From NCBI GenBank assembly GCA_964542965.1, contig CAZIVH010000002.1, positions 487-64,486 on the forward strand: a DNA stretch of 64,000 nucleotides, read 5' to 3'. A model generated the notes under the pieces. It had not been told where the DNA came from and made no database searches. It worked only from the letters and a program-made list of their open reading frames with translations. The stretch is from an uncultured Candidatus Peribacteria bacterium (lineage in GTDB: Bacteria; Patescibacteriota; Gracilibacteria; Absconditabacterales; Absconditicoccaceae). A program made the translations under genes and the position numbers. Numbering within the stretch: the first letter of the stretch is position 1; each line of letters begins with the position of its first letter. Of the stretch, positions 1 through 64,000 are shown one piece after another.

Positions 1-236
1 ATACGGTTCTTTCATTGCTCGACGGAGAAAAGATAGACTTCATCGAAGACACCGAAGATCCAATACAGCTTATCAAGAACTGTTTGAAGCCAGCGCAAAT
101 CAACAGTGTAGACCTCGAAGATAACAAAGCTATCGTCATGATGGACGAAAGCCAGAAAGCATTGGCTATCGGTAAGGGAGCTTCCAATGTAAAATTAGCG
201 ACACAATTGACGTGATATCAGATAGAGATCAGATAA
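1..236 (+). CDS. nusA: Transcription factor NusA, C-terminal fragment (5' end outside window)
   Basis: Track ORF 15-215 ends ...ALAIGKGASNVKLATQLT at TGA 213-215. Reading TGA as Gly gives LTGYQIEIR then TAA 234-236, matching the conserved NusA KH-domain tail LTGW..I. Confidence 0.8.
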
Positions 237-253
237 TCATAAATAGTTTCTCA

Positions 254-279
254 AAAAGCCTGTTTCGACGGGCTTTTTC
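254..279 (+). terminator. Rho-independent terminator after nusA
   Basis: aaaaagcc-tgtttcgac-gggcttttt: short GC stem flanked by an A-run and a T-run, 18 nt after the nusA stop. Confidence 0.45.
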
Positions 280-340
280 CTATATAAAAAAAATGGATAA
301 TAGCAATACCTATTATCCATCATTTATCGTGACCGAAAAC

Positions 341-835
341 TTATACAATGACTTCTTGCTTCGATTCCAGGTTTAATACCCTTGCACGTCCCTTGGAAAT
401 TTCCCTTGAAGGGAAACCAAACGAACATGGAGAACTTTGGACAATCTCAAGATGACTTACCACCACAACCACTTCCTTTTCGCAAGATTGAATGAATTCA
501 TCAAGCCAACGCTGATTGTATACAGAAACCTCTTTCTGTTCCTGCTCTTTCAATCGTCTTGCTTCCTTGTTAGCATCACTTCCCGACCAAAGCTCATAGT
601 GTTTCCTGAAATATACATCAATATCATTTTTGAACCAAACATCTTCCATCTCTTTTGCTGTCTGAATTGCACGGTTCGCCATAGAGGTAAGAAATACTAC
701 GTCCTTATCCCTGATCTCAGGTATCAACTTTACAGCTAATCGACGGACTGAAGTTTTACCTTCATCAGAAAGATTGAAGGGTTCAGTCATGATGTACTCA
801 CCATGACGAATAAAAATCACTCTTTTTGTTTTCAT
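341..835 (-). CDS. Histidine phosphatase (phosphoglycerate-mutase-like) family protein
   Basis: 164-aa ORF starting MKTKRVIFIRHGEY (RHG catalytic motif) with a later VVVVSHLE His motif. TAA stop, no internal TGA. Confidence 0.6.
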   Translation of the reverse strand: MKTKRVIFIRHGEYIMTEPFNLSDEGKTSVRRLAVKLIPEIRDKDVVFLTSMANRAIQTAKEMEDVWFKNDIDVYFRKHYELWSGSDANKEARRLKEQEQKEVSVYNQRWLDEFIQSCEKEVVVVVSHLEIVQSSPCSFGFPSREISKGRARVLNLESKQEVIV

Positions 836-926
836 ATGTTTGATGTTTTTTACGATACTATGATAATTACAAGAAAAGTCAATTGTATTTATTAAGGCAT
901 CATATCACCTATAGATATTCTTGCAT

Positions 927-954
927 TTGCAAATTTTCCACTCTCGAGTATACT
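927..954 (+). promoter_or_regulatory. Putative sigma70-type promoter of the 962-1726 gene
   Basis: TTGCAA (927-932), 16-nt spacer, TATACT (949-954), 7 nt before the first ATG. Confidence 0.3.
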
Positions 955-961
955 TAGGTAT

Positions 962-1726
962 ATGTATTTTACCCTACTCTATATATTCATGGGAAAAACC
1001 AATGAACACACATACAATAGAATTTTGCATCCTGATCTCTCCATAAAAGAAGATCTCGATAAATTTTGCAATGACATGAAGGATCATATAGAGGCTACCT
1101 TATCATGGCAATGGAAAGAAAAAGCATGGAAGGAAGACGAAAGAAACACTTTTTTGGATTCTCTACCGGATACGCTCAAAGCCATAGAAGATCTCAAAGA
1201 AAAAAAACTCTCTCCTCTTGATATGAAATTTCTTAGGCTGATCGAAAGATATTATTTTGTAATATCCAACAAACCGAACTTGAAAACCAAAAACCATCCT
1301 GAGCATTATGCATCATACTTATCTATAGTAAGGGACGATATAGCAAAATTTTATCTTGAATGCGCGATACAAAACATTTACGATATAGCGCATAATCCTA
1401 TTGAAAAAATAGAATGATTGCCTGAGATAATCTCTATATGCAATTTTTTTGAGCAAAAATACAAAAATAAACAGTGAGATATCAACTGGAAAGCATACCA
1501 TGATGAGTATTTCAAAAACGAATGAATAAAGCTTTCACGTATGATTGATGATATCCTCAATAAATATCCTACCCAACAAAAGTTTTCCCCCAATATACCG
1601 CTTTTGTTCAAAATTTTTGACTTTCACAACAGATATAGTCTTGAGGTACTCTTTAGCATACTCACCTATCAGCTACACTATTCAAAAGATCAAGCTACCA
1701 AGCTTATAGAAAACCATATAGAATAA
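962..1726 (+). CDS. Hypothetical protein (254 aa after reading 3 TGA as Gly)
   Basis: Track ORFs 962-1417 and 1541-1726 share a frame. The gap contains only TGA (1415, 1475, 1523) and no TAA/TAG. The start could instead be ATG 989. Confidence 0.5.
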
Positions 1727-1734: not shown

Positions 1735-3468
1735 CTATCTATCGAAGAACTTATCGATATCGCTTTTTGGTGTCTTGATAAAGAACGGCCTACCATGCTG
1801 ACAAACAAAAAGTCCTTGAATTGCCTGCAGTCCTTCTCTCACAAGATTCGCCATCTCCGGCAATGAGAGTCTATCTCCCGCTTTGATAGAAACTTTGCAA
1901 GCATGCGTCGCGAAAATCTTATCTAAGATATGGTCGAATGTTATTGTCTCCAGATACAGGATATGATTAAATATTTTTTCCATATCGATCTTGTAGATAG
2001 AAAATACCTGAGGGACGGAATAGATAGCAACTTTATTTTCCCCTATCCTAGAGGCATCAAAGCCCAAAGTATTTATCTGATCCAATTTTTCGTCAATATT
2101 CGGGATGTTCGCAATCTCGATAATGATGGGTTGGAGAAGAATCTCTGAAGATGGTGATTCAGAAGTATTGATTCATTTCTTTATCTTTTCGAAGAGGATC
2201 CTTTCCGCCAATGCGTGCTGATCGATATAGAACAACGAATCATTTGATTCTACAAGGATATACGAATTCCACAATTGCCCTATCACTTTATAATCGCCAA
2301 TTTCCTTATCCCACAATTGTTCTTGCTGCTCCACGGTCGTGAATGCTGCCGTTTGCGTGACTACAGGCTGTGATACGGTTGCAAAGTCGTTTACTCCAAA
2401 CATACTATTCTGCTCTACTACCGGCGTAGGCGATGAAGAAACTTCAAGCCTGGAGAACTGTTGACTGATGGTCGATACTCTCTGTTCTCCGAGCGCTTTC
2501 TGGACATTGGAATAAATCACATCATAGACCTTTCTGGAATCCGCGAATTTCACTTCAAGCTTTCTTGGATGAACGTTGACGTCCACGAAACTCGGTTTTG
2601 CATCGATCATCAAGATCGCTAACGGATATTCATTGGGCGCTATCTGCCTATAATAGGCGTCCATCAACGCTTTCTTGATTACCTTGTCCTGGACCGGCCT
2701 TTTGTTGACGTAAATCTTGATATTCTCTGCAGATCAGAAAAGCAGCTGCGCATTTCATACAACGCCATACAGCGACAATTCCTCTATCGTATGCTGCAAT
2801 TCTTTGACGTGTTGAGATCGATCTTTTTTGTAGATATCCTGCAATCTCTCCATCAGAGAATCTCTCGGCTGTAGATCAAACACTATTTTGTCATTTTTTT
2901 TGAATATAAACGTCTTATCAGGATGCATCAATGCGATATCTACGATATAGTTGTAACAATAGAAAAATTCCGTCTGCGAGGATTTGAGGAATTTGAGTCT
3001 TGCAGGCACATTATAGAACAAATCTTGGATCGTGACGATAGTGCCATGAGCAAACCCTACCGGCTGATGCTTGATGATAGGATCCATTCACAGTTTCGTT
3101 ATTTTCGTCCCTATTTCGCTGTATGCTGTCTTGGAAATCACTGTCGTCTTGCTGACCTCAGCAATACTCGCCAACGCCTCTCCACGGAACCCATAGCTAC
3201 TCAGATTGAAAAGATCTTGTTCGCCATAAATCTTGGAAGTAGCATATCTCTCGAATAATAATTCCATATCTGACAACTCTATCCCGGACCCGTTGTCCTC
3301 GACGCTGATAAGCGATTTCCCGCCATCATGAATATCTATAGTGATCTGTGTAGCTCACGCATCCAAACTATTTTCCACCAATTCTTTGAGTATCGAAGCC
3401 GGTCTTTCTACAATCTCCCCTGCCTTGAGCCTATTGATGAGATATTCCGGTAATCTACGGATAGCCAT
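1735..3468 (-). CDS. mutL: DNA mismatch repair protein MutL
   Basis: Track ORFs 1735-2085, 2173-2667, 2755-3087 and 3088-3276 plus an N-terminal piece are in one frame. N-terminus is [37 protein letters not shown]-[TGA 3355-3357]-ATQI, so TGA lies on the Gly of the GHKL motif LDAGA. All gaps checked: only TGA. TAG stop at 1735. Confidence 0.9.
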
Positions 3469-9363: not shown

Positions 9364-10761
9364 TTATGCTAATTCTTTGATATATTGCTGGAATAGATAA
9401 CCTTTCTCTTCGAAATTTTTCCATAGCGTATAACTTGGCGAAGCGGTAGAAAGTAGACAGATCTTCCCGTTTTTGGTATATTTGTAAGCGAATTTCACTG
9501 CTTCTTTCATATCATTAGTCTGGAACATCTTTATCCGCACGATATCTTTCCCGGCTGGCGTCTCTTCATCTTTTATCGCCTGAGCAATCCTCTTCCCTGA
9601 ATCAGGGAATAAGACTACATTTCTAATTCCATATTTACGGATACATGCGATAAGATCTTCAAAAACATATCCTCTATCCGTTCATCATAGGAATATCGTA
9701 TCTATCTTTTCGCCGAATGTCTGTATCGCTTGGATAGTGCTTTCAGGAGTCGTCGAAATTGCATCGTCTACCCACACAATGCCACCATATGTTCAGACAT
9801 TCTCCATCCTATGGGGTAATCATTTGAACGATGCCAATGTCTCCTGGAGAACTACTGGATCGATATTCATGATATCGCAAATACCCAAGACCGCAGAGAT
9901 GTTCATCATATTATGTTCTCACTGGAGTATGATGGTAGTATTCTGGAATGTCTGATTATTCATGATATAAAAAGCACCATCATGATAACTATATTCACCC
10001 GTATGGCCAAATGTATGGATGTGAAGTTCTTTTAGCTCTTGAGTTGTAAAATCATGTTTATCAAGGATTTCGTCCCTCAAAAGATTATACTGACTACCAT
10101 TGAGCAGATTGAGTTTTGCGTTTTTGTAATTTTCAAATCCATCATGTCGATCAATATGATCCGAATAGATATTTAGCAAGACACTGATGTAATTTTTCTT
10201 TGTCAATCCTTCCAGCATATAGCTTGATACCTCAAAAACAACATAGGTATCCTTTTGCGATTCAAGATTTTTGAGATCAAGATAATCAAGCACAGGATTG
10301 CCGATATTTCCAATCAATTGCACCTCTTTTTTTGCATGTTTCAAGGTTTCGTAGATAAGCGTGGATGTTGTCGATTTTCCTTTGGTACCGGATACCGCAA
10401 TAATCTTTCCCTGATAATAGTCAAAGAAAATCTGTGCCTGAGAAGTTATTTTTTCCCTGTACGGATAGATCTTGCTATGATAGAGCGATATCCCTGGAGT
10501 CTTGATGATGATATCATATTTTTTGAGATTATCGAGATAATTATCTCAAAACACCATATCGAACGTGGGATCTATAGCAAATGTTGTACTGATATGTTCG
10601 AGGTTCTGCGCCAATCATTCGATCTTCTTCGCTCCATCAAGGATGGTGATGTGTGTAGGAGGAATGCCGATCTTCAGGAGAAATTGCAGTGAAGATTTTC
10701 CCTCCCTCCCATATCAGAGAATAGCTATTTTCTTATTTTGGAATTTTTCAAAACTTATCAT
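9364..10761 (-). CDS. murD: UDP-N-acetylmuramoylalanine--glutamate ligase (MurD-type Mur ligase)
   Basis: MISFEKFQNKKIAIL-[TGA]-YGREGKS... (Rossmann GxGxxG with UGA Gly), ...GKIIAVSGTKGKSTTSTLIYETL (Mur ligase P-loop), in frame with track ORF 9919-10344 and a C-terminal domain ...LPHRMENV... Confidence 0.8.
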
Positions 10762-10828
10762 ATACCGCGATAATGATATAAGACTTTTATCGCCTTGAAC
10801 ATACTCTTTTTGCTTTTGAATGCAATTT

Positions 10829-10859
10829 AAAAAAAAACAGTGACGAAAACGCCACCTGT
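10829..10859 (-). terminator. Putative terminator downstream of the small ORF at 10867-11007
   Basis: rc ACAGGTGGCGttttCGTCACTGT followed by T9. Confidence 0.4.
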
Positions 10860-10866
10860 TTAGTTT

Positions 10867-11007
10867 TTATCGACTTCTTTGGTAATCTTTTGACATCCTC
10901 CGATGGGAGAGTAATGTAGCCTTGCTCATTAGCCAGCTAAATACTAGATACATAAGAGATAAGGACAATAATACCATCATTCCGTAGAACACATACACAT
11001 TTGCCAT
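10867..11007 (-). CDS. Small hydrophobic protein (46 aa), speculative
   Basis: MANVYVFYGMMVLLSLSLMYLVFSWLMSKATLLSHRRMSKDYQRSR; ATG to TAA with a terminator just downstream. Confidence 0.3.
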   Translation of the reverse strand: MANVYVFYGMMVLLSLSLMYLVFSWLMSKATLLSHRRMSKDYQRSR

Positions 11008-11084: not shown

Positions 11085-11225
11085 CTATTGAATCTCCGGA
11101 TTATTTTTCTCCATCTGTTTCAAGGCTTTGTTCATTGCCCAAGATTCGATAAGACCATTTGCTACATAGAGAAGCATTCCTCCTCCTGTTACAGCAATAA
11201 TTCCGATAAAAAACAATGTTTCCAT
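11085..11225 (-). CDS. Small hydrophobic protein (46 aa), speculative
   Basis: METLFFIGIIAVTGGGMLLYVANGLIESWAMNKALKQMEKNNPEIQ; preceded by a TTGACA-type promoter. Confidence 0.3.
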   Translation of the reverse strand: METLFFIGIIAVTGGGMLLYVANGLIESWAMNKALKQMEKNNPEIQ

Positions 11226-11245
11226 TTTTTCTTTATTTCTTTTTT

Positions 11246-11275
11246 ATCTTATATATATTTTATATAAAATGTCAA
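11246..11275 (-). promoter_or_regulatory. Putative promoter (minus strand)
   Basis: rc TTGACA (11270-11275), about 18 nt, then TAAGAT. Same TTGACAtttwata...atatat architecture as the promoters at 56592 and 57555. Confidence 0.35.
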
Positions 11276-11359
11276 TACAATTTAAGCGTAAAGCATTATC
11301 CTTGATTTTCCTCCTCCGATGGCTATGGTGAAGATGACTTTATTTTTCCATTTTATGGA

Positions 11360-12715
11360 ATGAAAGCTTTTCAGACCTTCTATTTCACATGATATACCTT
11401 TGATCCCAAATCCCTCAAAGCATCTTTTTTTTATTCATTTGATAAGGAAGTCTCATTTACAGAAACTATAGATTTTGCCTGCCCCGGATTTCAACCTATC
11501 AATGATCTGGATCCTGAAGTTATTCATACCCTCCTTTTCCATCTTTCCTTGGCGCTCGGTATCAGCTATTATAAGCTTTATCCCACCAAAGATCTCGTCA
11601 TAGAGACCGGATCGCTCAATGAAGACCAGAGAATCTTTTGGAAAACCTTCTATACCCAATGACTCGGTGAATTTTTCTTTAGGAATCAGATTTCTCCCAA
11701 AGAACTCCTCAATTTTGTCAATGGCACTCTACCCGCCCCTCAGAAATTATTTTCCTGCAGTTCAAACACTCCTATGATCGCTTTGGGATGAGGAAAAGAT
11801 AGTATCGTAAGCGTCGAACTTATCAAAAAGCTCAATATCCCTTTCTATACCTCTACATTTGGCAAAGATTACTACCTTCACCAAGTGGTCGGCGAGAAGA
11901 TTTGAGCTCCCAGACTCCTCATGCAAAGGACCATGGATCCTCAGCTCTTTGCCATGAATGAACAAGGATATTACAATGGCCATGTACCTATCAGCGGCAT
12001 CATCGCTTTTGTTCTCACGACGGCAGCATATCTGTACGATTATCGCTATATTATCATGTCCAACGAAAAAAGCGCCAACGAAGGGAATACCTTCATGGAT
12101 GGTATAGAAATCAATCATCAACGGAGCAAAAGCTATCAATTCGAATCAGATTTTTCTTTGTATCTCAAAAGATATATCTCTCCTGATCTCGTATATTTCA
12201 GTCTCCTCAGAGGCATGTACGAACTCATGATCGCCAGGCTTTTTTCCAAATATCCGCAATATTTCACCACTTTCAGCAGCTGCAACAACAATTTCAAGAT
12301 CATAGAAAAAAATAAGACCACTGATCATCGTCGATGCGGACATTGTCCGAAATGCGCATTCGTCTATTCGACACTAAGACCATTTATCAGTGACGAAGAT
12401 ACCCAAAAAATCTTTGGCCAAGAACTCTATGACAATGCCGGACTTATCCCGCTCTACAAGGAACTGCTCGGTATCGATGGCATCAAGCCATTTGAATGCG
12501 TGGGGACGAACGAAGAGGTGACCTATGCCATGTATCTCCATTATGAAAATATCAAAACCAGATCAGAGCTCCCTCCGATCATGGAATTCTTCAAAAGAAC
12601 CGTATTGCCTACCCTCTCATCAGACGACCTTATCGCCCTCAAAGAGAAACTTTTGAGAAGATATCAAGAAGAGACTAATATACCACAGATATTCCACGCA
12701 ATTTTACCTGAATAG
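11360..12715 (+). CDS. PP-loop ATP pyrophosphatase superfamily protein, divergent from murD (possible MurL-like epimerase)
   Basis: ATG 11360 is in frame with track ORF 11921-12715. Lines 11341-11881 checked: 4 TGA, no TAA/TAG. Motif NTPMIALG-[TGA 11789-11791]-GKDSIVS matches the PP-loop SGGxDS. Later RRCGHCPKCAFVY cysteine cluster. Confidence 0.6.
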
Positions 12716-12897: not shown

Positions 12898-15648
12898 ATG
12901 ATCAAGACACTCACGAAACACTACCACAACCTCTCAGGTCTCAAGAAATTCTTCTTTGGGATTGCCTTTCTTTTGGGAGTATTCACAACAACACTCCTGT
13001 TTTCCCAGGCAAACACCATACCATTTGAGGATGACCTTCCTACCATTTTTTCGTCATGGTTCAATTCTGGATATTATTCCAACACCCGGTTCAAATACGG
13101 AGGAAATAATTTCGTCGGCATTGTTTTTCGACAAAACAAAGAGCCGCTTTCCTTGCCGGAAGATGTACTCATCAATAGCTGAGCACAGCATATTCAATGC
13201 TATAGCCGTCTAAGAGGCATATATTACAACAACCAAAGAGGATGGAGAATCCGACCATTAGATACGGGAAATCTTGCAATTTTGAGTTGATCCGCATTAG
13301 CTTCAGGATACGATACCATGACTATGAGTGGTTGATTATACACTGATTGCATATGAATTACTTGATATACGCCTCAGTCCAATCAAGTCTATGGACAGAT
13401 CACCCATTCGCTCTATGGATTAACTTATCATATGTTTGCTTGAGTTGCTTATGACTTTACGGGAAATCACATCATCAGTTGAAGCACATTTTCTCCGACT
13501 TTGATTATCGGTACAGGAGGCATTCATCATGGATATATTTTCGATACCGATGGAGGAATCGCTGAACTCAGCATGACTGCTCCACGATGCGAATACTTTG
13601 CCATGACTCCAGTAAATACCATTTCTGAATGAGATGACGTAAATTTCACCTGTTCTGCAATAAATGTTTCCGGGTATCGTCTTCAATTCTTCCTTTCAGG
13701 ATCTAGTTCTCCTTTTGCAGAAGACTTTAGCAATCGGAATGCCACTCCTGGAATGCGAGCAACCGGGAACGCACTACCTCAAGGACAATACCGAGTGACA
13801 TGCACTCCTAGAGATGCGGTATGATGATTACTCCCTCAATGTGGTGATCAGCTATTGCTTACCGTAATAGGATCAGGCACCACTCCTTCAGGAAGTTGAT
13901 GTAATCCTGATTTCCAATGAGAGATCACTTTTGCGGCATTATCAGGAAGTATCGTATTTCAATCACCACTCTACCTGGGAACCTACTATACCAACAAAAC
14001 AGGTATCAAACTTCAATGGGCAGCTACCGAACCGAATACCATCAATATCTCATGAGATTTCATAGGATCTCCTATCACATGATCATATACAGGAACAGAT
14101 TTTTACAACCATATTGGTATGACGCCTATTACGCTTAGCTGAACCAATATGCGAAATAATTTCAACAGCACCTATACTGTCAACAATGGATCAGGAACCT
14201 GCACCTATACAGATGCTATGAAAAGGGTGTATGTAGATACTACTCCTCCTACCGCCCCTGTCGTCACCGTTCCATGAAGTGGTGCCGGTATATGCCCTAC
14301 GACAGGAATCACTATCACACGAACAGCATCTACTGACGGCTTGGGATCTCAACTCTCTCATTACAGTTATGAAATCTATACGAATAGCGGAATGACTGTA
14401 TCATGATTATTGCTTAGCGGGAATGTTCCCGCAGGGACTACTACCATAAACATTCCACAATTTACCTATTTCCCGTTAGGAACCTATTATATCAGAGTGA
14501 ATGCTGTAGATAATGTAGGATTGAGCACTTCTTCAATTACCTCAAGTTTTACTACTTCTCAGCAATACTGTGCAGGAACTACTGGTGTCGTTATCGTCAC
14601 TCCTACTCTATGGCTCAGAAACGTAAATCTTGATACTGCTTATAGATCAGATCCTATTCGAATCCTCGGATTGACTGGACCTACATTGGTAAGCGTATCC
14701 AAAGGCATGCTCTTCATCGATTCGGGATTACAGACAGGGACAAACACCAGTAACCAAACAGGGGTGGGAACAACCGGCATAATAACATCAAACGACACTC
14801 TCTATATAGAGTTGATCTCTAGCGATGAATATGACACTACCGTGACCTCTGAATTGCGTGTTGCCTGAATGACGGGAACATTCTCTGTCACAACCAAAAA
14901 AAGCAGCTGTACCCTAAGTACCGCAGAAAAGCTTATGATCCAGAATATCTATGAAGATATCAAAGATGAATACAACAATGATATGTCCAAACTCGCCGAG
15001 TTTTTGAACACCTTTAGAAATATGGTAGAAGACGAATTAGAGCTTAGCGATAGTTGCACACTGGAATATCTTCTTTCCCTCATTGAAGATGAATATGACG
15101 TAGATGGTATCGATACCAGCAAACACATCTGTCCTAACTGCAAGGAATATAGTATAGCGTATGATTATGATCAAAGAGCATACTACGCTCCCGAGATGAT
15201 GAACAGATATTACTTCATCAATCGTGAATCACTCATCAGACATCTCGATTACTATAATCCTGGAGATTGTCACGTCAACACCTACAATACTAACACTCGG
15301 TCACAATCTTCAGACCCTATGACTCACATTGCACCTAACGGCAAGATCTATCATCTCGTAGGACAATACGGTGGATTCTCCGCTACGGAATTCGCTACAC
15401 CGAAATATTTCGATTCGCTTTCGAACATCATCCAATATATCAATCTAAAAAACCCTCCAAAAACCATTTGGGATCATCATCTCGATGTAACGTTTATGCC
15501 TATCGTCTATGCAGCACCTAACGGAAAAGAATATAAGATAAGGAAAGCCACTAATCTTTGATTTTTCTCCTACAGACTCATGAAAGTACAATACTTCTCT
15601 AGCCTATCAGCATTAAAAAGCTTCATCGACAAAAATAATCCACGATAA
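12898..15648 (+). CDS. Giant cell-surface protein A (916 aa), N-terminal signal anchor, Ig/FN3-like middle, shared C-terminal module
   Basis: Track ORFs 12898-13182, 14410-14868 and 14869-15561 share frame 1. Every line from 13141 to 14401 checked: only TGA (about 25). Has a TTPPTAPVVTVP linker. C-terminal 230 aa are paralogous to protein B. Confidence 0.75.
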
Positions 15649-15686
15649 TCAATAGCTAAGATCATTATTTACCCATTAGTATCATT

Positions 15687-21792: not shown

Positions 21793-25611
<3,819 letters not shown>

Positions 25612-25730: not shown

Positions 25731-29522
<3,792 letters not shown>

Positions 29523-43500: not shown

Positions 43501-43630
43501 AATTAATGAACAATGAATAATTAATAATGAATAATGTTGGTTGTATCTTCTTATGGACTATTGTAATTTATAATAATCCATCAAAAGACATTCCGTCATT
43601 ATTCATTTTTCATTTTTAATTATTAATTTT
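43501..43630 (+). repeat. Intergenic core + heptad-arm element, copy 3 (core 43536-43595)
   Basis: Arm AATTAAT/GAACAAT/GAATAAT/TAATAAT/GAATAAT. Core GTTGGTTGTATCTTCTTATGGACTATTGTAATTTATAATAATCCATC with a 12-bp hairpin ATGGACTATTGT / ATAATAATCCAT. Arm CATTATT/CATTTTT/CATTTTT/AATTATT abuts the pyk stop. Confidence 0.65.
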
Positions 43631-50354: not shown

Positions 50355-50376
50355 GATGAACAATGGTAAATAAAGA

Positions 50377-51318
50377 TTATTTTATCATTCGAGGATAATG
50401 CTTTTTTACTTCTTTTTTTATATCTTTGGGTTTAATGACACCATATTCGGTGATAATTCCGGTAATGAATTTTGCAGGAACGATATCAAATGCGTAGTTC
50501 ACGATTTCTAGTTCTTTCGGAGCATCTGGTCGGAGTTCCTTGCCAGACCTTTGTTCTATCTTGATAGTATTTTCGGCATCTACCTTGAGCAATGATCATG
50601 CGATGTACACAGGAATTTTGGAATGCCAAGCTGCTAATGCTATAGCGAAACTGCCGATTTTATTGAATACATCACCATAAAGAGAAATAGCATCCGATCC
50701 TATGATGACCATATCGATATCCACATCTGATGCGTAGAGATTGTCAACGAAAAACGGTGCAGCCCCATCAACGATCATCGTATTGGGCACTTTTGCTTTG
50801 AGCAGATCCAATGAGGTCTTTCTTCCCTGATACAAAGGCCTTGTCTCCGTATTGTATACATAGATATTTTTCTTTTCTTTGTTATGCGCTTGTACAAGGA
50901 TTTTAATCACCGATCCACTGTGGCAGTGTGTCATGATATTCATGCGTTTCTTGATAAGCTTTGCTCCAATCAATGGCCTTAACGCCTCTTCTGTCTCTAT
51001 ATCTTGAATATAGGATTTACAAGCTTTGTATAATTTTTCTTGGATAGTCTTGATGTCGCTCTTGTTTTTGAGCAATGCCTTGTATTCGAAGAGACAATCC
51101 TTGATTCCATTGAACAACATCGGCTCGGTATCCCTAGATGTTTTGAGCAACACTATGGCCTGTTTGAAAAACGTATCGAATTCCTTGAGATCTTTGAACT
51201 TTTGTCTTTTGATCTCTTTGGCAAGGATATCTATCCCTGCTTTGGCGATATTCGTCGCTCACTGGATCTTGATACTCTTGATATCTTCAGCAACCGCCTT
51301 GATAGGAGTGAGATTCAT
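50377..51318 (-). CDS. e2b2: Ribose-1,5-bisphosphate isomerase (eIF-2B alpha/beta/delta-like)
   Basis: MNLTPIKAVAEDIKSIKIQ-[TGA 51259-51261]-ATNIAKAGIDILA... (the RGA..IA motif), ...MTHCHSGSV..., ...VIIGSDAISLYGDVFNKIGSF... Track ORFs 50377-50592 and 50596-51153 joined. Confidence 0.8.
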
Positions 51319-51320
51319 CA

Positions 51321-51457
51321 TTAGAAATAAATTAAGAATTAAAAATTAATAATGAATAATGTCGGTATTGTTTTATTATCGCCTATTGTAATATACGATA
51401 CTCCATTTCAGCGAATCTTTCATTTTTCATTGTTCATTATTCATCGTTCATTAAAAG
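51321..51457 (+). repeat. Intergenic core + heptad-arm element, copy 4 (core 51361-51417); fills the whole spacer
   Basis: Arm ...TTAAGAA/TTAAAAA/TTAATAA/TGAATAA. Core GTCGGTATTGTTTTATTATCGCCTATTGTAATATACGATACTCC (hairpin TATTGTA ata TACGATA with a G.U pair). Arm TTCATTT/TTCATTG/TTCATTA/TTCATCG/TTCATTA. Confidence 0.65.
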
Positions 51458-53370: not shown

Positions 53371-53500
53371 TTAGTGAAAAGTTAAAAGTGAATAGTGAAA
53401 AGTGTAGGATAGATATATTATGAACTATTGTATATTACGATAGTTTATGAATATACAATTCTATCGTTTTTCACTTTTAGTTTTTCATTCTTAGTTAAAT
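53371..53500 (+). repeat. Intergenic core + heptad-arm element, copy 6 (core 53404-53466)
   Basis: Arm AGTGAAA/AGTTAAA/AGTGAAT/AGTGAAA. Core GTAGGATAGATATATTATGAACTATTGTATATTACGATAGTT (10-bp hairpin AACTATTGTA tat TACGATAGTT, 53423-53445). Arm TTTTCAC/TTTTAGT/TTTTCAT overlaps the pnp stop. Confidence 0.65.
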
Positions 53501-55627
53501 TTTTACTACTGCTACTTTACCGTCATTATCGATACTCTTGATCTTGACTCTAATGGTCTGGAAGAGTTTGAAATGATTGGTAAGCGGTAAATCATATCTC
53601 TGTCAGAGATTGGAGATATGACAAAGTCCCATCTTGCCTTTTGGTAATGCGACAAAAAGTCAGTAATCTTCTATCCTCTTGATCTTTGCGTCGAATTCCT
53701 GGCCGACTTCCAGATCGGAAGCAATTTCCAAAATAATAGCCTCGACTTCTGCGATAATCTCTGCTCTTGGATGAGTGATATAGCATGTTCCATCATCTTC
53801 GAAATCGATCTTCACGTGATCATGGGTATCAATGATATCGTTGATCACTTCTCCGCCCTTTCCGATCACTTCTCTCACTTTGTCTGGTTTGATGTGGATG
53901 ATCTTGATCTTCGGTGCATATTCTCCGACTTCTTTTCTTGGTTCAGCTATCGTCTGCAACATCACGTCCATGATCTCTGCATATCCTTCGAATGCTCTAT
54001 CAATGGTCTCATGAACGATATCCATAGTCAGCCCTTTCAATTTCGTATCGAGTTGGATAGCGGTCATACCGTCTTTGGTTCCTGCAACCTTGAAATCCAT
54101 ATCTCCGGTGAAATCTTCCGTAGCCATCAAATCGTTCAAGACGATATGCTTGGTAATATTGTCTTCATCATCATGATCTGTCATCAACCCCATAGCAATA
54201 CCCGCTACCGGCTTCTTGATGGGCACTCCTGCTGCCATGAGCGACAAAGTCGATCCACAGACAGATCCCATAGAGGTAGATCCACCTGATCCTAAACATT
54301 CTGAAACCGCTCTGATGGTATAGGGGAATTCTTCCATAGAAGGAAGAACTTTTTCCAATGCTTTTTCTGCCAATCTTCCATGTCAGATTTCTCTTCTTCC
54401 TGTGCCTCTCGTTCCTTTTGCATCACCGACACTGAACGGAGGGAAATTGTAATGATGGAAATATCTCTGATGAACGCCATCATTTTCCATGTCGTCGAGG
54501 ATCAGATATTCTTTTGGTCCTCACAAAGTAACGGTAGTCAATACCTGAGTATCTCCTCTCCGGAACAATCCGCTTCCATGTACTCTTGGTAAGGTATCCA
54601 CTTCACAGTAGATAGGTCTGATATCTTTCTGATCCCTGTCGTCGATCCTTTTTCCTGTATCTAATGTGCGATGACGCAAGAAATATTTGATGACGTTGAA
54701 TACCGCCATTTTCACCTTAGTCTCTGTGAAATCTGTTTGCTCTGCATCAGCGATCTTGTCTTTGCAAAGTTCCAGCACCTCTTTTTCATATTGTGCAGAT
54801 AAGGTATTGAACGGCACTTTGGTATTGCCTGCTAATGCGTCCAATTTATCCTGAGTAAGAATATTTTTGACATATGCGATCAATTCTTCAGAAGGCTTAT
54901 TATAGGTAATCTCTTGCATCGTTGGATTGACGGTCTTGAGAAATTCTGTCTGAAAATCGCATGATGCGTCGATCGCTTTCTGACCGACTACGAACGCTTC
55001 CTTCAGAAGATCCTTGGGAACCTCATTTCCTTCCGCTTCGATCATATTGATAGAGCCTTTCTTTCCTGCGACTAACAATAAGAAGAAACTTTTTTCTGAT
55101 TCTGCTTTGGTCGGATTGATGACAAACTGTCCGTCGATATATCCTATCATCGCTGCGCCTACAGGCCCGTCAAATGGGATACCTGCTGCCATGATAGACA
55201 TAGAGGAACCGATAATAGTCGAGACTCCTAAATCCATAGTATGATCGATTGCCAATGGCGTAATCGTGATGACGACGTCATTGATCATACCCTTAGGAAA
55301 CATAGGTCTGAGCGCTCTATCGGTAAGTCTGCAGTACAAAATGTTTTGGTCGGAAGGTCTACCTTCTCTTCTTCTGTACGCTGCTCCTCCGAGTCTTCCT
55401 GCAGCTGAGAAGCTTTCTCTAAAGTCGATCATCAACGGTAAGAAATCAGAATCTGATCTTGGATTCTTCTCCATGACAGTAGAACACAATAATGCGTTGT
55501 CTTGGAATTTGATTTCTAATGAACAGTCTGCTTGGACTGCTAATTTTCCCGTCTCGAACGAGAGTTTCTTACCTTCTCGATCGAAGGATTGTGCGTGGAG
55601 CGTAAACTCCTTTTTTTTAATAGGCAT
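53495..55627 (-). CDS. pnp: Polyribonucleotide nucleotidyltransferase (PNPase, 710 aa)
   Basis: Track ORFs 53660-54373 and 54521-55627 joined: ...[24 protein letters not shown]-[TGA 54383-54385]-HGRLAEKAL... S1 domain ...[22 protein letters not shown]... TAA 53495. Gaps checked. Confidence 0.9.
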
Positions 55628-58116: not shown

Positions 58117-58260
58117 CAGTGAAAAACTAAAAACTAAAAGTGAAAAACGAATGATTGATCTTTGTATTAACTATCACCATTTTACAATAGTCAATTTCAG
58201 CAATACCTACACTATTCACTTTTCACTATTCACTATTCACTTTTCACTTTTCACTAATAC
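58117..58260 (-). repeat. Intergenic core + heptad-arm element, copy 7 (core 58150-58212, reverse orientation)
   Basis: rc core GTGTAGGTATTGCTGAAATTGACTATTGTAAAATGGTGATAGTTAATAC (near-identical to copy 2 over GGTATTGCTGAAAT.GACTATTGTA). Arms AGTGAAA/AACTAAA/AACTAAA/AGTGAAA and TATTCAC/TTTTCAC/TATTCAC/TATTCAC/TTTTCAC/TTTTCAC. The last arm overlaps the obg 3' end. Confidence 0.7.
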
Positions 58261-59741
58261 TGTATATATCTCGGCTCCAGTCACTCGTACGGACTCAACA
58301 CTTTCAAAACGTCTCCTTTCTGGATGCCCCTATTCTCGAACTCATCAAGCAAACCTTTACTACTCATCTGTTTCCGGAACCGTGCTTCAGCTTCATCATT
58401 TCCTCGCGGCAACTGCCGAACGAGTTTAGCGATTTCCTCATTATAGATTTCCCGGACATTGACATACTCTGCGTCGGTAGCAGTCAAATATTCATGCTCG
58501 ATCAAGAATGGTTTTTCTATTTCGCTGATATTGGCTATAGAATCTTTTCTCTTTTTTATCTCTCTATGCTGAATATGCTCAAAATGATAAACTTCCTGGG
58601 TATCTGTCTTTTTGATCATTTCTACTACATGATTCAATCGTTCGTCGACACCGAAATGAGTCGCTGCCGAAATCGTGAAGGTATGCTGGGTCAAAAGTTT
58701 TTTCGTAATCTTGGTTCAGATCTTGTTCTTTTTGAAAAATCATAGAATCTCCTTCCAAAGTTGTTCCTGATACTCCTTCAAAATATCCTGATCATTGACC
58801 AGATCATATTTATTGATGAGGAACATCATCCTTTTCTCGATAACAAGATTCCCTTCTTCGTAGGCATAGAACGTAATGAAGCCATCATCCTCCCTAATCT
58901 GCACTTCGAGATATTTATCTTCGCCTCAGAGTTTGGTATTAGCATATGCGACGATTTCCTCTAACAATTCTGGTATCTCGGTGATTCCTTGATCATATCT
59001 GGAGATATCGCACATCAAACAAAAGACCCTCGCTTTGAGCACATGACGGAGGAACGCATTGCCAAGTCCTTTCCCTTCCGCAGCTCCCTTGATCAATCCA
59101 GGGATATCAATGACATTGAAATTCGTCTTCTGTACAGTCACAGAACCTAAGTTAGGAACCAATGTCGTGAACGGATAATCAGCGACTTTTGCTTTGGTGT
59201 TTGAGATGGTATTGATCAACGACGTCTTGCCCACTGAGGGCGTTCAGATCAACGCGACATCAGCCAAAAGCTGGAGTTCAAGCACGATCTCTTTTTTATT
59301 TCCCGGTTCGCCGAGCAAGCAAAATGACGGATATTGATGGACCGCATCCTTGAAATGCATATTCCCCACTCCTCATTCACCGCCATACACCGCTGTTCGC
59401 TGTTCTCCATCCTGAGTGAACGCATGAAGGATCTCATCGGTCTGTTTGTCTCTTATGATAGTTCATACAGGGACAATCAATGTCAGGTTCTCAGCATTGG
59501 CACCATATTGATCCTTTGATTTTCCCGGTTCTCCCGGCAAGGCTTTGAAGTTGGATTTGTACCTATATGCTTGTAGAGTGTTTTCGTCTTTGTCCGCTTG
59601 GAAAACAACTGATCCTCCATCTCCTCCATTTCCTCCCGAAGGACCTCAAAAAGGCACGCCTGCCTCTCTTCTTCAGGTGACTGTTCCATCTCCTCATTTT
59701 CCCGATTGGACGGTAATCGTGATTTCATCATAAAAACGCAT
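58254..59741 (-). CDS. obg: GTPase Obg/CgtA (495 aa)
   Basis: [47 protein letters not shown] (Gly-rich Obg fold). ...LELQLLADVALI-[TGA 59244-59246]-TPSVGKTSLI (Walker A). Every line from 58201 to 59701 checked. Track ORF 59483-59731 is an off-frame artefact. Confidence 0.9.
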
Positions 59742-59891: not shown

Positions 59892-61385
59892 TTACAACAC
59901 ATTAGCTGCTATCTCTGCAAGCTCACTACGTTCGCCCTTCTCAAGTTTGATATGAGCGAAAAGCGGTTGTCCTACCATTTTGAACACCACATACGATAAT
60001 CCATTGGATCGTGAATCCAAATACGGAGTATCGATCTGTCCCGCATCACCGCAAAGGATAATCTTGGTATTTTCCCCTGCACGAGTCACGATAGTCTTCA
60101 TTTCATGAGGAGTCAGATTCTGTGTCTCATCGATAATGAACACGATATTGTTCAAACTTCGTCCACGGATTGCTGCCAAAGGCTGAATCTTGAGTTTTCC
60201 TTCATCTATCAAGATGGAGACAAAATCATCCTTGATTTCCGGTTCTGCTTTCTGAGGACTCTTTTTCTTCTTTTGTTTCGCTTCAGGTTTCACATCTACA
60301 GGATTTCCCTTTTTACCTCTGTGCAAACTCTTGATCAGATCAAGATTGTCATACAACCCCTGCATAAACGGAGCTACTTTTTCTTTCAGATCGCCAGGCA
60401 ACGCACCGATATCCTTATTACTCAAGGGTACGGTTGCTGCTGCAAGGACTAACATATCGCATTTACCCTGCTTAAGTAGATGAAGACCTACCGCTATCGC
60501 GAGCAACGTCTTACCGGTGCCAGCTATGCCAAACAGGGAAATAAGTTTGATATCGTCCTGTAGCATAAGGTTGATGGCGAAAGTCTGCTCCGCATTTCTG
60601 GGAGTAATCCCAGATATTGGCTGCATTTTTTCCACACGATACATTTTTTTCATTGTGGGATTCAATCGCGCCAATACACTACGATTGTCAGTACTCAGGA
60701 TAAAGCACATGTTGGGTTGCTTATCTTCCGGAAGGAGCTTCAGATGCTCCTCTGTCAATTCTACGCCTTTCTCGATATTTTCCTTGTACAGATCGGAAAT
60801 CAATCCAGAAAGATTTTCATTTTTAACTTCTTTTTTTCCGGTGTAGAGTTCATCAACATTAGCTACCTTGTCATTTTCGTAATCTTGAGCTTCCATATTA
60901 ATCCCTTCCGCTTTCAATCGGAGGTTTATGTCCTTACTCACTAAGATTACCTTCTTGTCCTGATTTTTGTCTATCACGTGACAGACGGCACTGAGAATGC
61001 GATGATCGCCTTTTTCCTCGTGAAAAATGTCTTTTACTCGACTGTGGAGTTTTCTCGGAAAGGTTTTGATATGGATCTTACCCATATTTTCACCCAACGA
61101 AACTCCACCATTGAACAATGCAGACACCTCTTTTTTCTCTTTGCCTTTACCGCCTTTCCCGGTATTGACTTCCTGCGTGATACGGACCTTGCGAAACTCA
61201 TCAAGTTGACGATGAAATTCACGGACATTGAATCCTCTTGCATCGCTGTGCTTCTTGTAGGTATCAAGTTCCTCCAATACCGTCATCGGAATGACTACAT
61301 CATGTTCCTGGAACTTATGGATACATGTATGATCATGCATAATCACGTTCGTATCCAGAACGAATACTTTTTTTTCTTTTGCCAT
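59892..61385 (-). CDS. PIN-domain plus PhoH-like ATPase (YlaK-type), 497 aa
   Basis: Intact ORF: N-terminal VFVLDTNVIMHD (PIN); ...LFGIAGTGKTLLAIAVG (Walker A); ...VFIIDETQNLTPHE (Walker B). No TGA codon. Confidence 0.8.
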   Translation of the reverse strand: MAKEKKVFVLDTNVIMHDHTCIHKFQEHDVVIPMTVLEELDTYKKHSDARGFNVREFHRQLDEFRKVRITQEVNTGKGGKGKEKKEVSALFNGGVSLGENMGKIHIKTFPRKLHSRVKDIFHEEKGDHRILSAVCHVIDKNQDKKVILVSKDINLRLKAEGINMEAQDYENDKVANVDELYTGKKEVKNENLSGLISDLYKENIEKGVELTEEHLKLLPEDKQPNMCFILSTDNRSVLARLNPTMKKMYRVEKMQPISGITPRNAEQTFAINLMLQDDIKLISLFGIAGTGKTLLAIAVGLHLLKQGKCDMLVLAAATVPLSNKDIGALPGDLKEKVAPFMQGLYDNLDLIKSLHRGKKGNPVDVKPEAKQKKKKSPQKAEPEIKDDFVSILIDEGKLKIQPLAAIRGRSLNNIVFIIDETQNLTPHEMKTIVTRAGENTKIILCGDAGQIDTPYLDSRSNGLSYVVFKMVGQPLFAHIKLEKGERSELAEIAANVL

Positions 61386-61511: not shown

Positions 61512-61590
61512 AAGCCCCGCAACAACATGGGTGAGTAGCTCAATTGGTTAGAGCAGTCCCGCTAAAGCGGGAAAGGTTCGGGGCTTTTAT
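61512..61590 (+). pseudogene. Partial tRNA-Lys duplicate (acceptor 5' strand, D-arm, altered anticodon arm, 5' T-stem), enclosed by AAGCCCCG/CGGGGCTT and followed by TTTTAT
   Basis: 61523-61556 is identical over 34 nt to 61841-61874. AAGGTTCGGGG is also shared (61573-61583 vs 61890-61900). The anticodon arm is replaced by TCCCGC-taaa-GCGGGA. No T-loop or 3' acceptor strand. Confidence 0.6.
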
Positions 61591-61605
61591 ACATAAATAA
61601 TCCAT

Positions 61606-61869
61606 ATGTATTATGTATATATCCTGAAATGAGATAAGTACTATGTGTGAATTACGAACAATATACAAAGAAGGTTCGATGAACATAAAAGAGGTAATAG
61701 TTATTTTACAAAAAGGATAGGAAAAAATATTATATTATTATGATGGTTTCAATATTCTACGAAAAAAGAAGCTTTGGAGTTAGAAAGTAAAATTAAAAAA
61801 TCTGGTCATATCGAAAGATGGACCAAAGAAAAAACATTTACAACATGGGTGAGTAGCTCAATTGGTTAG
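61606..61869 (+). CDS. GIY-YIG nuclease superfamily protein (UPF0213/YhbQ-like, 87 aa)
   Basis: MYYVYILK-G-DKYYV-G-ITNNIQRRFDEHKRGNSYFTKRIGKNIILL-G-WFQYSTKKEALELESKIKKSGHIERWTKEK...; GIY...YVG/YIG and R..EH motifs. The last 23 nt overlap the 5' end of tRNA-Lys. Confidence 0.7.
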
Positions 61870-61920
61870 AGCAGGTCCCTCTTAAGGACAAGGTTCGGGG
61901 TTCGATTCCCCGCTCGCCTA
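61847..61920 (+). tRNA. tRNA-Lys (anticodon CUU), no encoded CCA
   Basis: Hand-folded cloverleaf: acceptor GGGTGAG/CTCGCCT (two G.U pairs), D-arm GCTC-AATTGGTTA-GAGC, anticodon arm GGTCC-CTCTTAA-GGACA, variable loop AGGTT, T-arm CGGGG-TTCGATT-CCCCG, discriminator A. Confidence 0.8.
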
Positions 61921-62031
61921 AAGGAAATTAAGATCTGATGGAAGTCGGATTTTTTTTGTTTGAAAACTTTCTCGCTTTGATTATAGTAACCTCATAAATT
62001 TACAATTCACAATTCATAATTTTTTAATTGT

Positions 62032-63858
62032 ATGCATATTATGTTACAATTCGATTCTCTCAAAACATTGGACGCATCCATCACACTCCTGCAAAAAAGA
62101 ATCAAAGATCCGCATACGCTTTTCCTCGTTGGAGGATGCGTCAGAGATCTCCTTTTGGGAATCGAAAAAAAGCCTACTGACATCGACTTCACCATGGCCG
62201 GTGATCCAAAAAAGTTAGATAAACTCATCGACAAAAAAGGCATGTCCTACTTCATGACCGAAAAATTCGGCACGATGACACTCATCAAAAAAATTGAAAA
62301 ATTGAAAAATTGAAAGATGGAAACATTGAATCCTGAAGCAATTAAGTATGAATTGACGCCACTGAGGACAGAAGGTAAATATGATGATTTCAGACACCCG
62401 GGAGAGATTGAACGAAGCAATGATCTCTTACTAGATTCCCATAGAAGAGACTTCACGATCAACTGCATCTATTATGCGAATACGAAACGGACACAAGAGC
62501 ATGAAAAACATATCGCTAAAAAATACATCCACCATTATTCTGACGACGACACGTTCGTCCAGAGATTGAACGACCAGGGATATATTCTCATCAAGGATTT
62601 GAATCTCTTGATACTCCAAGACCATAAACATATCTCCAAACTCTTCAAAGGGTGATGTTTCCATGACGATCATCTCGTAGAGATGTTGAAGTCCGTAACG
62701 ATTTTTTCTACAAAAAAGAATTGAAAATTAAAAATTGAAAATTGAAAATTACTACGTATCGTAGTTGATCCGCACAAAGGGATACAAGATAGTATCTACA
62801 AAAGATTGAGAGCAGTCGGCGATCCGGACAAAAGATTCAATGAAGATGCGTTGAGAATTGTGAGAGCGATTAGGTTTGTGAATGTACTTAATGAAAAATT
62901 GAAAAATTGAAAGATGGGAAAATTGAAAGATGGGAAAAATAGTGATAAAGTAACGTTGTTTGATTTTGAGAAAGCGACATGGAATAGCGTCAAAAAGAAT
63001 CATGAACTCGTAAAAAACGTAGCGAAAGAGAGAATCAAGGAAGAGATCATGAAAGCGTTTACGGTAGGCAATCCGTTCGGTTTCATCGCCTTGCTTGACG
63101 AAGCAAAACTGCTCGAACATTTATTCCCTGCCTTATACGCGACCAAAAATATCGAGCAACCCATCAGATATCATCCGTTTGATGTGTATGTTCACACGCT
63201 CCTCTGCTTGTTTGAATTGCAGAAAATAAATAAAGATCCTCTTGTGAGATTAGCGATGCTCTATCACGATGTCGGCAAGGTGGATCAATTCGGCGCGTAC
63301 GCTGACGGACTGAGCAAAGAAGAGATCAGAGAGATTCTCGCTGGGCCGCTGAATCACAGAAGAAGCTCACCGGAATACGCGAAGAAAGATTTCAAATCGC
63401 TCGGATTCTCCAGCAAAGAGATTACGGAAATAGCTCGATATATCGCCCATCACCACACGCCGGAAGAAATGATTTTCGCCAAAGAGGAAAATAGAGAGAA
63501 AAAAGTGAGATCTTTCCTTAGCGAAGCGGGCTACGAAAGAGCTATGAATGTCTTGGATATTGCGATGGCTGATAGATTGGGACAATATAACCCACTACAG
63601 AATAGTTCTGACATTTCCGATGTAGATGAAATCAGGAAAATCCTAAAAAAACTTCAGAAGCAAGAAGGACAATTCACGATGAAAAACCTCGCTATCGACG
63701 GAGCATATATCATGAAAGAATTAAAACTCCCTGCATGACCGACTATCGGAAAATTACTAAAAAAGACCCTTGAGTGGGTCATGACGGATATCAAAGCAAG
63801 GAATGAGAAGAAGCAGATATTAGGATTTTTGAAGATACAAATGAGACACCTGAAATAA
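62032..63858 (+). CDS. cca: CCA-adding tRNA nucleotidyltransferase with HD domain (608 aa) carrying three in-frame heptad-repeat insertions
   Basis: ...LFLVGGCVRDLLLG...PTDIDF..., ...RRDFTINCIYY..., ...LRAVGDPDKRFNEDALRIVRAIRF..., ...YHPFDVYVHTL...LYHDVGK... Track ORFs 62032-62313, 62317-62655 and 62914-63738 share frame 1. Gaps read by hand: TGA only. TAA 63856. Confidence 0.8.
62287..62330 (+). repeat. ATTGAAA-flavour repeat inside cca, site 1 (encodes KIEKLKN-G-KMETL)
   Basis: aaaaaaattgaaaaattgaaaaattgaaagatggaaacattgaa; shares ATTGAAAGATG with the spacers at 21071-21083 and 33080-33090. Confidence 0.55.
62712..62752 (+). repeat. ATTGAAA-flavour repeat inside cca, site 2 (encodes KKN-G-KLKIEN-G-KL)
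   Basis: aaaaaagaattgaaaattaaaaattgaaaattgaaaattac. Confidence 0.5.
62890..62940 (+). repeat. ATTGAAA-flavour repeat inside cca, site 3 (encodes NEKLKN-G-KMGKLKDGKN)
   Basis: aatgaaaaattgaaaaattgaaagatgggaaaattgaaagatgggaaaaat. Confidence 0.55.
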
Positions 63859-63947
63859 CTCCAAGACGTGCCCTCTTTATTTCCAAAGAGGGAGGTATCC
63901 TTTAGGATGGGAGATTTTATTTAGTCGCAAAATCCTCCACCCTTCAG

Positions 63948-63983
63948 GTTCCCCTCCTTTCAGTAAAGGAGGAACATTTTTTT
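63948..63983 (+). terminator. Rho-independent terminator downstream of cca
   Basis: GTTCCCCTCCTTTcagtAAAGGAGGAAC followed by ATTTTTTT. Confidence 0.6.
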
Positions 63984-64000
63984 ACGACAATTTCCGCACT

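Follow-up and report, generated by a model that had tools for sequence, protein, structure and literature searches.

Probable reassignment of UGA to glycine and of CGA and CGG to tryptophan in a 64-kb stretch of Absconditabacteria DNA, with an anomaly in PhoH2

In NCBI translation table 25, UGA is read as glycine, translation ends at TAA and TAG alone, and CGA and CGG remain arginine codons. This use of UGA in candidate division SR1 (Absconditabacteria) and Gracilibacteria was reportedly described in 2013 by the groups of Campbell and of Rinke. Proteomics has confirmed it in the sister group, for a BD1-5 bacterium (Hanke et al. 2014, PMC4032931). For Absconditabacteria, Codetta has in addition predicted that CGA and CGG both encode tryptophan, with matching tRNAs (Shulgina & Eddy 2021, eLife, PMC8629427). 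Here, we analyzed 64,000 nucleotides (nt) of contig CAZIVH010000002.1 (GenBank assembly GCA_964542965.1, positions 487 to 64,486 of the forward strand), referred to as the window. Judging from its sequence, the window very probably uses a code with three departures from the standard code, with UGA as glycine, CGA and CGG as tryptophan, and TAA and TAG as sole stops. That UGA encodes glycine in this clade is already known, and so is the CGA/CGG change, though from computation alone. What is added here is a code correction for the contig, the correction of one of 13 sites proposed in an initial annotation of the window, and an anomaly in the gene encoding the PIN-PhoH protein PhoH2.

With table 25, the window shares glycine-coding UGA, the two stops, the SR1 lineage, and housekeeping genes fragmented by standard-code calling, but its CGA and CGG codons behave as tryptophan. 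The code described by Shulgina & Eddy (PMC8629427) involves the same three codons in the same lineage, with AGA as the dominant arginine codon. The GC content of their CGA/CGG-reassigned clades is 0.26 to 0.38, and the window, at 38%, stands at the top of this range. In most of their Absconditabacteria, CGA and CGG are still rare, whereas in the window they exceed UGG. The window is closely similar to their "advanced" assembly GCA_002791215.1, with CGA, CGG, and UGG at 40, 23, and 33 per 10,000 compared with 30, 24, and 35. Table 4, used by Mycoplasma/Spiroplasma and some insect endosymbionts, likewise makes UGA a sense codon, and the genomes concerned are small and AT-rich too, but there it encodes tryptophan and here glycine.

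With TAA, TAG, and TGA all treated as stops, the longest open reading frame (ORF) of the window was 653 amino acids (aa). Treating TGA as sense gave ORFs of 1578, 1450, 1297, and 1282 aa, and freeing TAG or TAA in place of TGA left the maximum at 653 aa. A greedy set of non-overlapping ORFs with TAA/TAG stops (L34, on the minus strand, was placed by hand over a spurious plus-strand ORF, g24) covered 92.9% of the window. The 51 larger genes (at least 85 aa, plus three short ones) ended in TAA (41) or TAG (10) and never in TGA, and approximately 290 in-frame TGA codons were spread over about 40 genes, with RpoB, RpoC, and ribosomal proteins among them. RpoB, RpoC, PNPase, MutL, and others were full length only when TGA was read through. 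The initial annotation had called the standard-code ORF track an artifact with its breaks at TGA, and the comparison of ORF lengths and gene ends bears this out. It had also described L27, L34, the gene at 8694-9341, and most of the giant genes as invisible under the standard code. In agreement with this, the first three are left in pieces of at most 68, 30, and 67 aa, respectively, and the three giant genes contain 19, 53, and 68 in-frame TGA codons (RpoC and RpoB contain 12 and 8). Its broader statement that every long housekeeping gene is fragmented has exceptions in PhoH2 (497 aa), g35 (319 aa), S2, L7/L12, g50, and g52, all without TGA.

A different view would be that UGA is still a stop and that pseudogenes, sequencing errors, selenocysteine, or programmed read-through account for the breaks. 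Beyond the existence of in-frame TGA codons, nothing speaks for it. The number of such codons and the gene ends are at odds with it, as are the homology that continues in frame downstream of each TGA, the GGN codons found at the same positions in relatives, and the lack of any TGA at cysteine (see below for the last two). We consider UGA as a stop refuted, and its probability is practically nil.

Orthologues of 17 window genes in Escherichia coli K-12 were aligned with TGA, CGA, and CGG masked as X. TGA faced glycine at 32 of 56 aligned sites, against a background of 3.5% for nonglycine codons (Fisher p = 5e-31), and faced tryptophan and cysteine at none (0/56 each). The GGN codons of the window faced glycine at 69% of sites, a level similar to the approximately 57% for TGA. 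Further references came from searching a single genome of each GTDB species with the window RpoB, which yielded rpoB-rpoC loci from 61 standard-code Patescibacteria and 19 recoded SR1-type loci. The recoded relatives were sorted by identity to the query and by inspection of each locus; an ORF-coverage ratio was dropped, as it was confounded by GC content. At RpoB/RpoC columns conserved to at least 80% among 60 to 61 standard-code Patescibacteria, 12 TGA codons corresponded to nine glycine, two lysine, and one threonine columns. In RpoC, compared with 60 of these genomes, six TGA codons stood at columns with at least 96% glycine and two at lysine columns. No TGA in RpoB/RpoC was opposite tryptophan (0/17).

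The 19 SR1-type loci gave the same picture at the codon level. Among 634 partners of window TGA codons, GGA/GGT/GGG/GGC made up 323, the commonest class, and TGA itself 150; TGG was not among the 14 commonest partner codons. Conversely, GGA of the window was opposite TGA 388 times. At 128 glycine-conserved RpoB/RpoC columns in 20 SR1-type genomes, TGA accounted for 314 of approximately 1915 glycine codons. Because three independent comparisons (with E. coli, standard-code Patescibacteria, and SR1-type relatives) agree, the alignments support UGA as glycine, rather than tryptophan or stop, as the initial annotation had proposed when it set table 4 aside. Tryptophan-coding UGA, known from Mycoplasma and some endosymbionts, would do away with the ORF breaks just as well, and the genome is AT-rich and reduced like those of table-4 organisms. 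Yet, the absence of TGA from tryptophan sites in both reference sets refutes it, TGA does not swap with TGG in relatives, and the lineage is SR1, so that this assignment is hardly credible.

The 13 positions at which the initial annotation had placed a glycine-coding TGA are all in-frame TGA codons (TCA on the plus strand for minus-strand genes) within ORFs bounded by TAA or TAG only. Eleven of these sites are glycine columns in standard-code references. E. coli has glycine opposite the TGA in NusA, MutL, L27, L34, pyruvate kinase (codon 67), PNPase, and Obg. Glycine is present in 61/61 Patescibacteria at RpoB 820 (27063-27065) and in 60/61 at RpoB 1030 (26433-26435). RuBisCO codon 112 is opposite glycine in the structures PDB 8vgs, 5mac, and 9dyp, and so is codon 21 of ribose-1,5-bisphosphate (R15P) isomerase in PDB 5yfj. 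The RpoC site (23164-23166, HA-G-RKG) needs correction. E. coli has alanine there (HGARKG), 51 Patescibacteria have V, T, A, or S, and the conserved glycine is the residue preceding the TGA. A second TGA pointed out in pyruvate kinase (T-G, codon 73) is opposite methionine in E. coli. For the PP-loop gene (g16), PDB and Pfam gave no match, and glycine at 11789-11791 is read from an SGGxDS-like motif only. As a general rule, "invariant glycines" is overstated, given that the TGA codons not facing glycine in E. coli, over two-fifths of the total, are mostly at variable sites.

TGA made up approximately 22% of the glycine codons in the window. Its share was about 39% in the three giant genes but only about 9% in the group of RpoB/C, PNPase, RuBisCO, and translation proteins, and S2 and L7/L12 had none of it. 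TGA looks disfavored in highly expressed genes. In a more distant relative (L036, positions 9944-13843, CP060225.1; RpoB 69% identical), none of the 100 glycine codons of RpoB was TGA, which implies large differences in TGA use among the lineages of this recoded clade.

Translation with the usual code places arginine at universal tryptophan positions, for example at the invariant W of the RpoB motif GEMEVWALEAY. All three CGG codons at conserved RpoB/RpoC columns fell on tryptophan columns, namely, RpoB 245 and RpoB 1133 (CGG 28788 and CGG 26124, W in 61/61 each) and RpoC 738 (51/52). In RuBisCO, CGG-94 (47672) and CGA-183 (47405) were opposite tryptophan in all three structures (5mac is archaeal), CGA-129 (47567) was opposite W/W/Y, and CGG-97 (47663) was opposite phenylalanine; 8vgs scored highest (867 bits), and its printed alignment was near-identical. 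CGG at S2 30, S2 195, L10 119, and L10 124 corresponded to TGG in 9 to 13 relatives. Across the 19 SR1-type loci, window CGG was opposite TGG at 119 of 168 positions, the 106 partners of window CGA included TGG 41, CGA 30, CGG 7, and AGA 2, and window TGG was opposite CGA/CGG 28 times. AGA, AGG, CGT, and CGC swapped among themselves and with lysine codons. None of the 887 arginine codons at 74 arginine-conserved RpoB/C columns in 20 SR1-type genomes was CGA or CGG. Per 1000 codons, the window has 3.3 TGG, 4.0 CGA, and 2.3 CGG, so that CGA and CGG together outnumber TGG approximately 2:1 and would constitute about two-thirds of the tryptophan codons. The remaining codons all behave as in the standard code, and every other codon retains its standard meaning.

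The initial annotation had concluded that the window fits table 25. This conclusion stands for UGA and for the ORF boundaries, which are identical under plain table 25, but the table is incomplete here. Arginine-coding CGA/CGG would be compatible with the CGA codons of PhoH2, which look like arginine (see below), and with CGA-205 of MurD, which is opposite the arginine of E. coli DHMDRY. It would, however, put arginine into invariant tryptophan columns of RpoB, RpoC, and RuBisCO, and it would lower tryptophan to 0.33% of residues. It also fits poorly with the swaps in relatives, which are with TGG and almost never with AGA/CGT, and with the 887 conserved arginine codons. We therefore regard plain table 25 as contradicted by the data and very unlikely. 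Annotation of the contig with table 11 is useless, and table 25 still writes arginine for tryptophan at approximately 120 codons, about 0.6% of the total, catalytically conserved tryptophans included. Structure predictions, phylogenetic markers, and protein databases derived from such genomes inherit this error. The window represents one more genome in which the change of CGA/CGG to tryptophan is far advanced and supports a reassignment so far known from computation alone.

Published work on the clade suggests how the three-codon code could be decoded. A tRNA-Gly(UCA) would decode UGA, and there would be no release factor 2. CGA and CGG would be read by tRNA(UCG) and tRNA(CCG) with tryptophan identity elements, and CGU and CGC would remain arginine via tRNA-Arg(GCG). 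Tryptophan codons would have shifted from TGG to CGG/CGA, with a single T-to-C change from TGG, and this shift is far advanced in the present genome. The tRNA-Gly(UCA) of code 25 is marked by G1:C72, C2:G71, G3:C70, and U73. In the candidate phyla radiation (CPR), bacteria lack tRNA-Arg(ACG); CGU/CGC are read by tRNA-Arg(GCG), and CGA/CGG are read by tRNA(UCG)/tRNA(CCG), which in Absconditabacteria bear tryptophan features (PMC8629427). One expected mark of the CGA/CGG code is that these two tRNAs have tryptophan identity elements (G73, no A20) (Shulgina & Eddy 2021, PMC8629427). No prfB was seen among the genes of the 64-kb window, and an Rfam scan of the window returned tRNA-Lys and an L10 leader and nothing relevant to recoding.

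Several observations weigh against the three-codon code or its uniform use. Scans of the window and of 23 related SR1-type loci detected tRNA-Lys(CUU) alone and no recoding tRNA. A few TGA codons lie at columns conserved as K, R, or T (RpoC 66, RpoC 112, and RpoB 904), and the MurD CGA-205 mentioned above faces arginine. We found no experimental confirmation of CGA/CGG as tryptophan in the literature for any organism. The other such observations come from a single gene, PhoH2, which has no TGA among its 33 glycine codons and no TGG. Its arginine codons are CGT 8, CGC 2, CGA 5, and AGA 4, in a genome dominated by AGA, and the five CGA codons (61038-40, 60918-20, 60666-68, 60159-61, and 60009-11) are at arginine positions. 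For instance, RGRTLN of PDB 3b85 is opposite RG[CGA]SLN of the window, and standard-code homologues (Ignavibacteria, Bacteroidota, and others) have arginine at "NLR(L/M)KA" and "IRGRS".

PhoH2 orthologues were found on four other SR1-type contigs (L086 10001-11464, L088 10001-11359, L101 10001-11497, and L102 10001-11509), among them the complete RAAC1_SR1_1 genome, giving five genes with that of the window. The order CCA-adding enzyme, tRNA-Lys, PhoH2, Obg, RlmH, and PNPase is common to three of the four contigs; RAAC1_SR1_1 shares only the first three. In the five genomes, TGA accounts for 0 of 159 glycine codons of PhoH2; across 195 ORFs from SR1 loci, its share is 21%. When genes of L101 and L102 are called with the standard code, PhoH2 stays whole, and all of its neighbors are broken up. 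At nine invariant arginine columns, the five genes have CGT 20, CGA 6, CGG 2, CGC 3, AGA 4, and AGG 2. CGA/CGG thus contribute 8 of 37 arginine codons, compared with 0/887 in RpoB/C (Fisher p = 3e-12), and between genomes they swap with CGT/CGC/AGA and never with TGG. The PhoH2 alleles are 48 to 62% identical, compared with 81 to 95% for PNPase, 53 to 83% for the CCA-adding enzyme, and 73 to 90% for Obg of the same genomes. Identity to PhoH2 of Ignavibacteria or Bacteroidota is 42 to 54%, so SR1 PhoH2 genes are about as far from these as from one another.

It is possible, though on balance doubtful, that a chromosomal PhoH2 has been kept in "standard-code spelling" within genomes that abandoned the standard code. 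We found no mention of this exception in the literature, including the available portions of Shulgina & Eddy 2021 (PMC8629427). One possible explanation is that CGA/CGG decoding is not uniform across genes. In its full form, this would mean ambiguous or gene-dependent decoding, mostly tryptophan and arginine in at least PhoH2. The codon counts at invariant arginine columns and the lack of swaps with TGG are in its favor, and Shulgina & Eddy grant that it would take experiments to exclude ambiguous translation (PMC8629427). Such decoding has no known mechanism, however, and inserting arginine at the invariant tryptophan CGG sites would damage RNA polymerase. Furthermore, SR1 PhoH2 has lost one "invariant" arginine in 5/5 genomes and three more in L102, and because of these losses the constraint on the protein may be relaxed. 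Repeated import from a standard-code pool would also explain the same data. Taken together, we judge gene-dependent decoding unlikely.

A second possible explanation is that very import, in which the locus was repeatedly overwritten from a standard-code gene pool. Phages of Gracilibacteria/Absconditabacteria are code-11 compatible and keep TGA out of their reading frames (Liu et al. 2023, mBio, PMC10746230). PhoH2, g50, and g52 resemble such phage genes (PMC10746230) in having no in-frame TGA and the same ORF in either code, but they are chromosomal and have heavily recoded neighbors, and the synteny of PhoH2 extends over five genomes. A search of IMG/VR with a single sequence for a phage source of SR1-type PhoH2 gave no match. 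A profile search turned up numerous PIN-PhoH genes in viral contigs, none with more than 45% identity to the SR1 type. With a best viral match of 45%, neither a phage source nor the import explanation gains direct support from these scans. Thirdly, PhoH2 may possibly be under selection to remain translatable under standard decoding forced by an invader, or to be activated in that situation. If so, PhoH2 would be a code-switch-proof RNase/helicase defense gene. Should real biology lie behind the PhoH2 exception, it would offer a rare handle on how genes pass a genetic-code boundary or are shielded from one.

We take the window for a piece of the chromosome of an uncultivated bacterium, assigned by RpoB similarity to the Absconditabacteria (candidate division SR1). 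SR1-type genomes rank first, in line with the SR1/Absconditabacteria affinity that the initial annotation had given the code; this placement is a similarity ranking and not a tree. The best matches were SR1-type metagenome-assembled genomes (MAGs) at 81 to 92% identity, followed by SR1 oral taxon HOT-345 (74%) and an Absconditabacterales MAG (64%); identity to other Patescibacteria was approximately 44%. Reads that match this lineage are present in SRR15237810/11 and ERZ27239121. Several of the nearest MAGs carry the automated-pipeline label "Candidatus Peribacteria," and one is labeled candidate division SR1. The loci L006, L007, L008, L010, L015, L016, L019-L021, and L036 are titled "uncultured Candidatus Peribacteria bacterium"; their RpoB is 65 to 92% identical to that of the window, and their long-ORF coverage rises much more with TGA as sense. 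Other Patescibacteria-like matches of the same search are titled "Gammaproteobacteria." The taxonomy labels of these public records look unreliable. Features of the window are listed in Table 1.

Table 1. Genes and other features of the window, with their TGA, CGA, and CGG codons
Feature	Coordinates	Strand	Length and codons	Evidence and remarks
NusA, C-terminal fragment, runs off window start	3..236	+	1 TGA (213-215)	TGA at Gly of E. coli LSGWEL (local alignment)
MutL	1735..3468	-	577 aa; 5 TGA, 1 CGA	tblastn with E. coli mutL; TGA 3355-3357 at G of NSLDAGAT
MurD-like Mur ligase	9364..10761	-	465 aa; 8 TGA	Pfam Mur_ligase_M/C, MurD-like_N; 5/8 TGA at Gly (E. coli MurD)
PP-loop-like gene (g16)	11216..12715	+	499 aa; 5 TGA, 1 CGA, 1 CGG	TGA 11789-11791 in ALG-x-GKDS
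Two giant paralogous surface-type genes	12898..20396	+	916 and 1569 aa; 19 and 53 TGA, 12 and 16 CGA/CGG	ORF calls
L27	21439..21711	-	90 aa; 2 TGA	Both TGA at Gly of E. coli L27 (KKAGGS, RLGVK)
RpoC	21793..25611	-	1272 aa; 12 TGA, 1 CGG (23398-23400)	CGG at W column (51/52)
RpoB	25731..29522	-	1263 aa; 8 TGA, 3 CGG (28788-28790, 26124-26126, 29136-29138)	Alignment to 61 references
L34	29625..29780	-	51 aa; TGA 29688-29690	TGA at G of E. coli KNGRQVL
EF-Ts, small membrane protein, S2, L7/L12, L10	30474..33765	-	TGA rare or absent	Codon counts
Giant gene	34790..39130	-	1446 aa; 68 TGA (52% of its Gly codons)	ORF call, counts
Pyruvate kinase	43629..44633	-	334 aa; 7 TGA	5/7 TGA at Gly of E. coli PykF (DTKGPEIRT, ARGDLG, MLSGE among them)
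Form II/III RuBisCO	46529..47953	-	474 aa; 2 TGA, 2 CGA, 2 CGG	PDB 8vgs, 5mac, 9dyp; both TGA at G
Ribose-1,5-bisphosphate isomerase	50377..51321	-	314 aa; 2 TGA, 2 CGA	PDB 5yfj; TGA 51259-51261 at G of IRGAGRIA, other TGA at Ala
PNPase	53495..55627	-	710 aa; 4 TGA, 1 CGA, 1 CGG	3/4 TGA at Gly of E. coli Pnp, including RREIGHG 54383-54385
Obg GTPase	58254..59741	-	495 aa; 10 TGA, 7 CGA/CGG	4/6 aligned TGA at Gly of E. coli ObgE, including Walker A 59244-59246
PIN-PhoH (PhoH2)	59892..61385	-	497 aa; 0 TGA in 33 Gly codons, 5 CGA	PDB 3b85, homologues, SR1 orthologues
tRNA-Lys(CUU)	61846..61921	+		ARAGORN, Rfam; no bearing on recoding
CCA-adding enzyme	62032..63858	+	608 aa; 6 TGA, 3 CGA/CGG	ORF call; L086, L088, L101, and L102 orthologues 56-83% identical

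The two giant surface-type genes on the plus strand have homologous ORFs in three SR1 loci, where the window CGA/CGG codons are mostly opposite TGG or CGA. The CGA/CGG codons of Obg are likewise opposite TGG or CGR in L086. Upstream of rplJ-rplL, the Rfam family L10_leader matched positions 33796-33923 on the minus strand (49.8 bits; gathering score, 44), which indicates that this SR1 genome possesses the ribosomal autoregulatory leader. A cluster of nucleoside-salvage type lies on the minus strand at 44679-51321, with a thymidine/AMP phosphorylase homologue (44679-46202), RuBisCO, and R15P isomerase. This pathway is reported for CPR bacteria. Adjacent to the cluster, a 98-codon ORF (51339-51635, minus strand) with eight TGA and five CGA codons would encode a very Gly/Trp-rich peptide. 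A weakly similar ORF is found in the same place in L086 and L101 (43 to 45% identity), and the stretch may be a real gene or non-coding DNA.

The signal-peptide genes g50 and g52 (55942-56547 and 56766-57512, both on the minus strand) lie between PNPase and RlmH and have no TGA among their 18 and 22 glycine codons, respectively. L086 has no genes called at this spot, and L101 has a different gene of 254 aa, which is whole under the standard-code call and presumably TGA free. The spot looks like a variable insertion site with code-neutral genes. Its signal peptide had suggested g52 as a transfer from Bacteroidota, but g52 turned out to be an orphan with four database matches.

Next to PhoH2, a perfect 35-nt direct repeat is present at 61522-61556 and 61840-61874. 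The 5' end of tRNA-Lys(CUU) falls within the second copy, and the first opens a truncated tRNA-like stretch in which ARAGORN makes no call. Between the two copies is a GIY-YIG nuclease gene (61606-61869), which overlaps the beginning of the real tRNA. This arrangement suggests an insertion by which part of the tRNA was duplicated.

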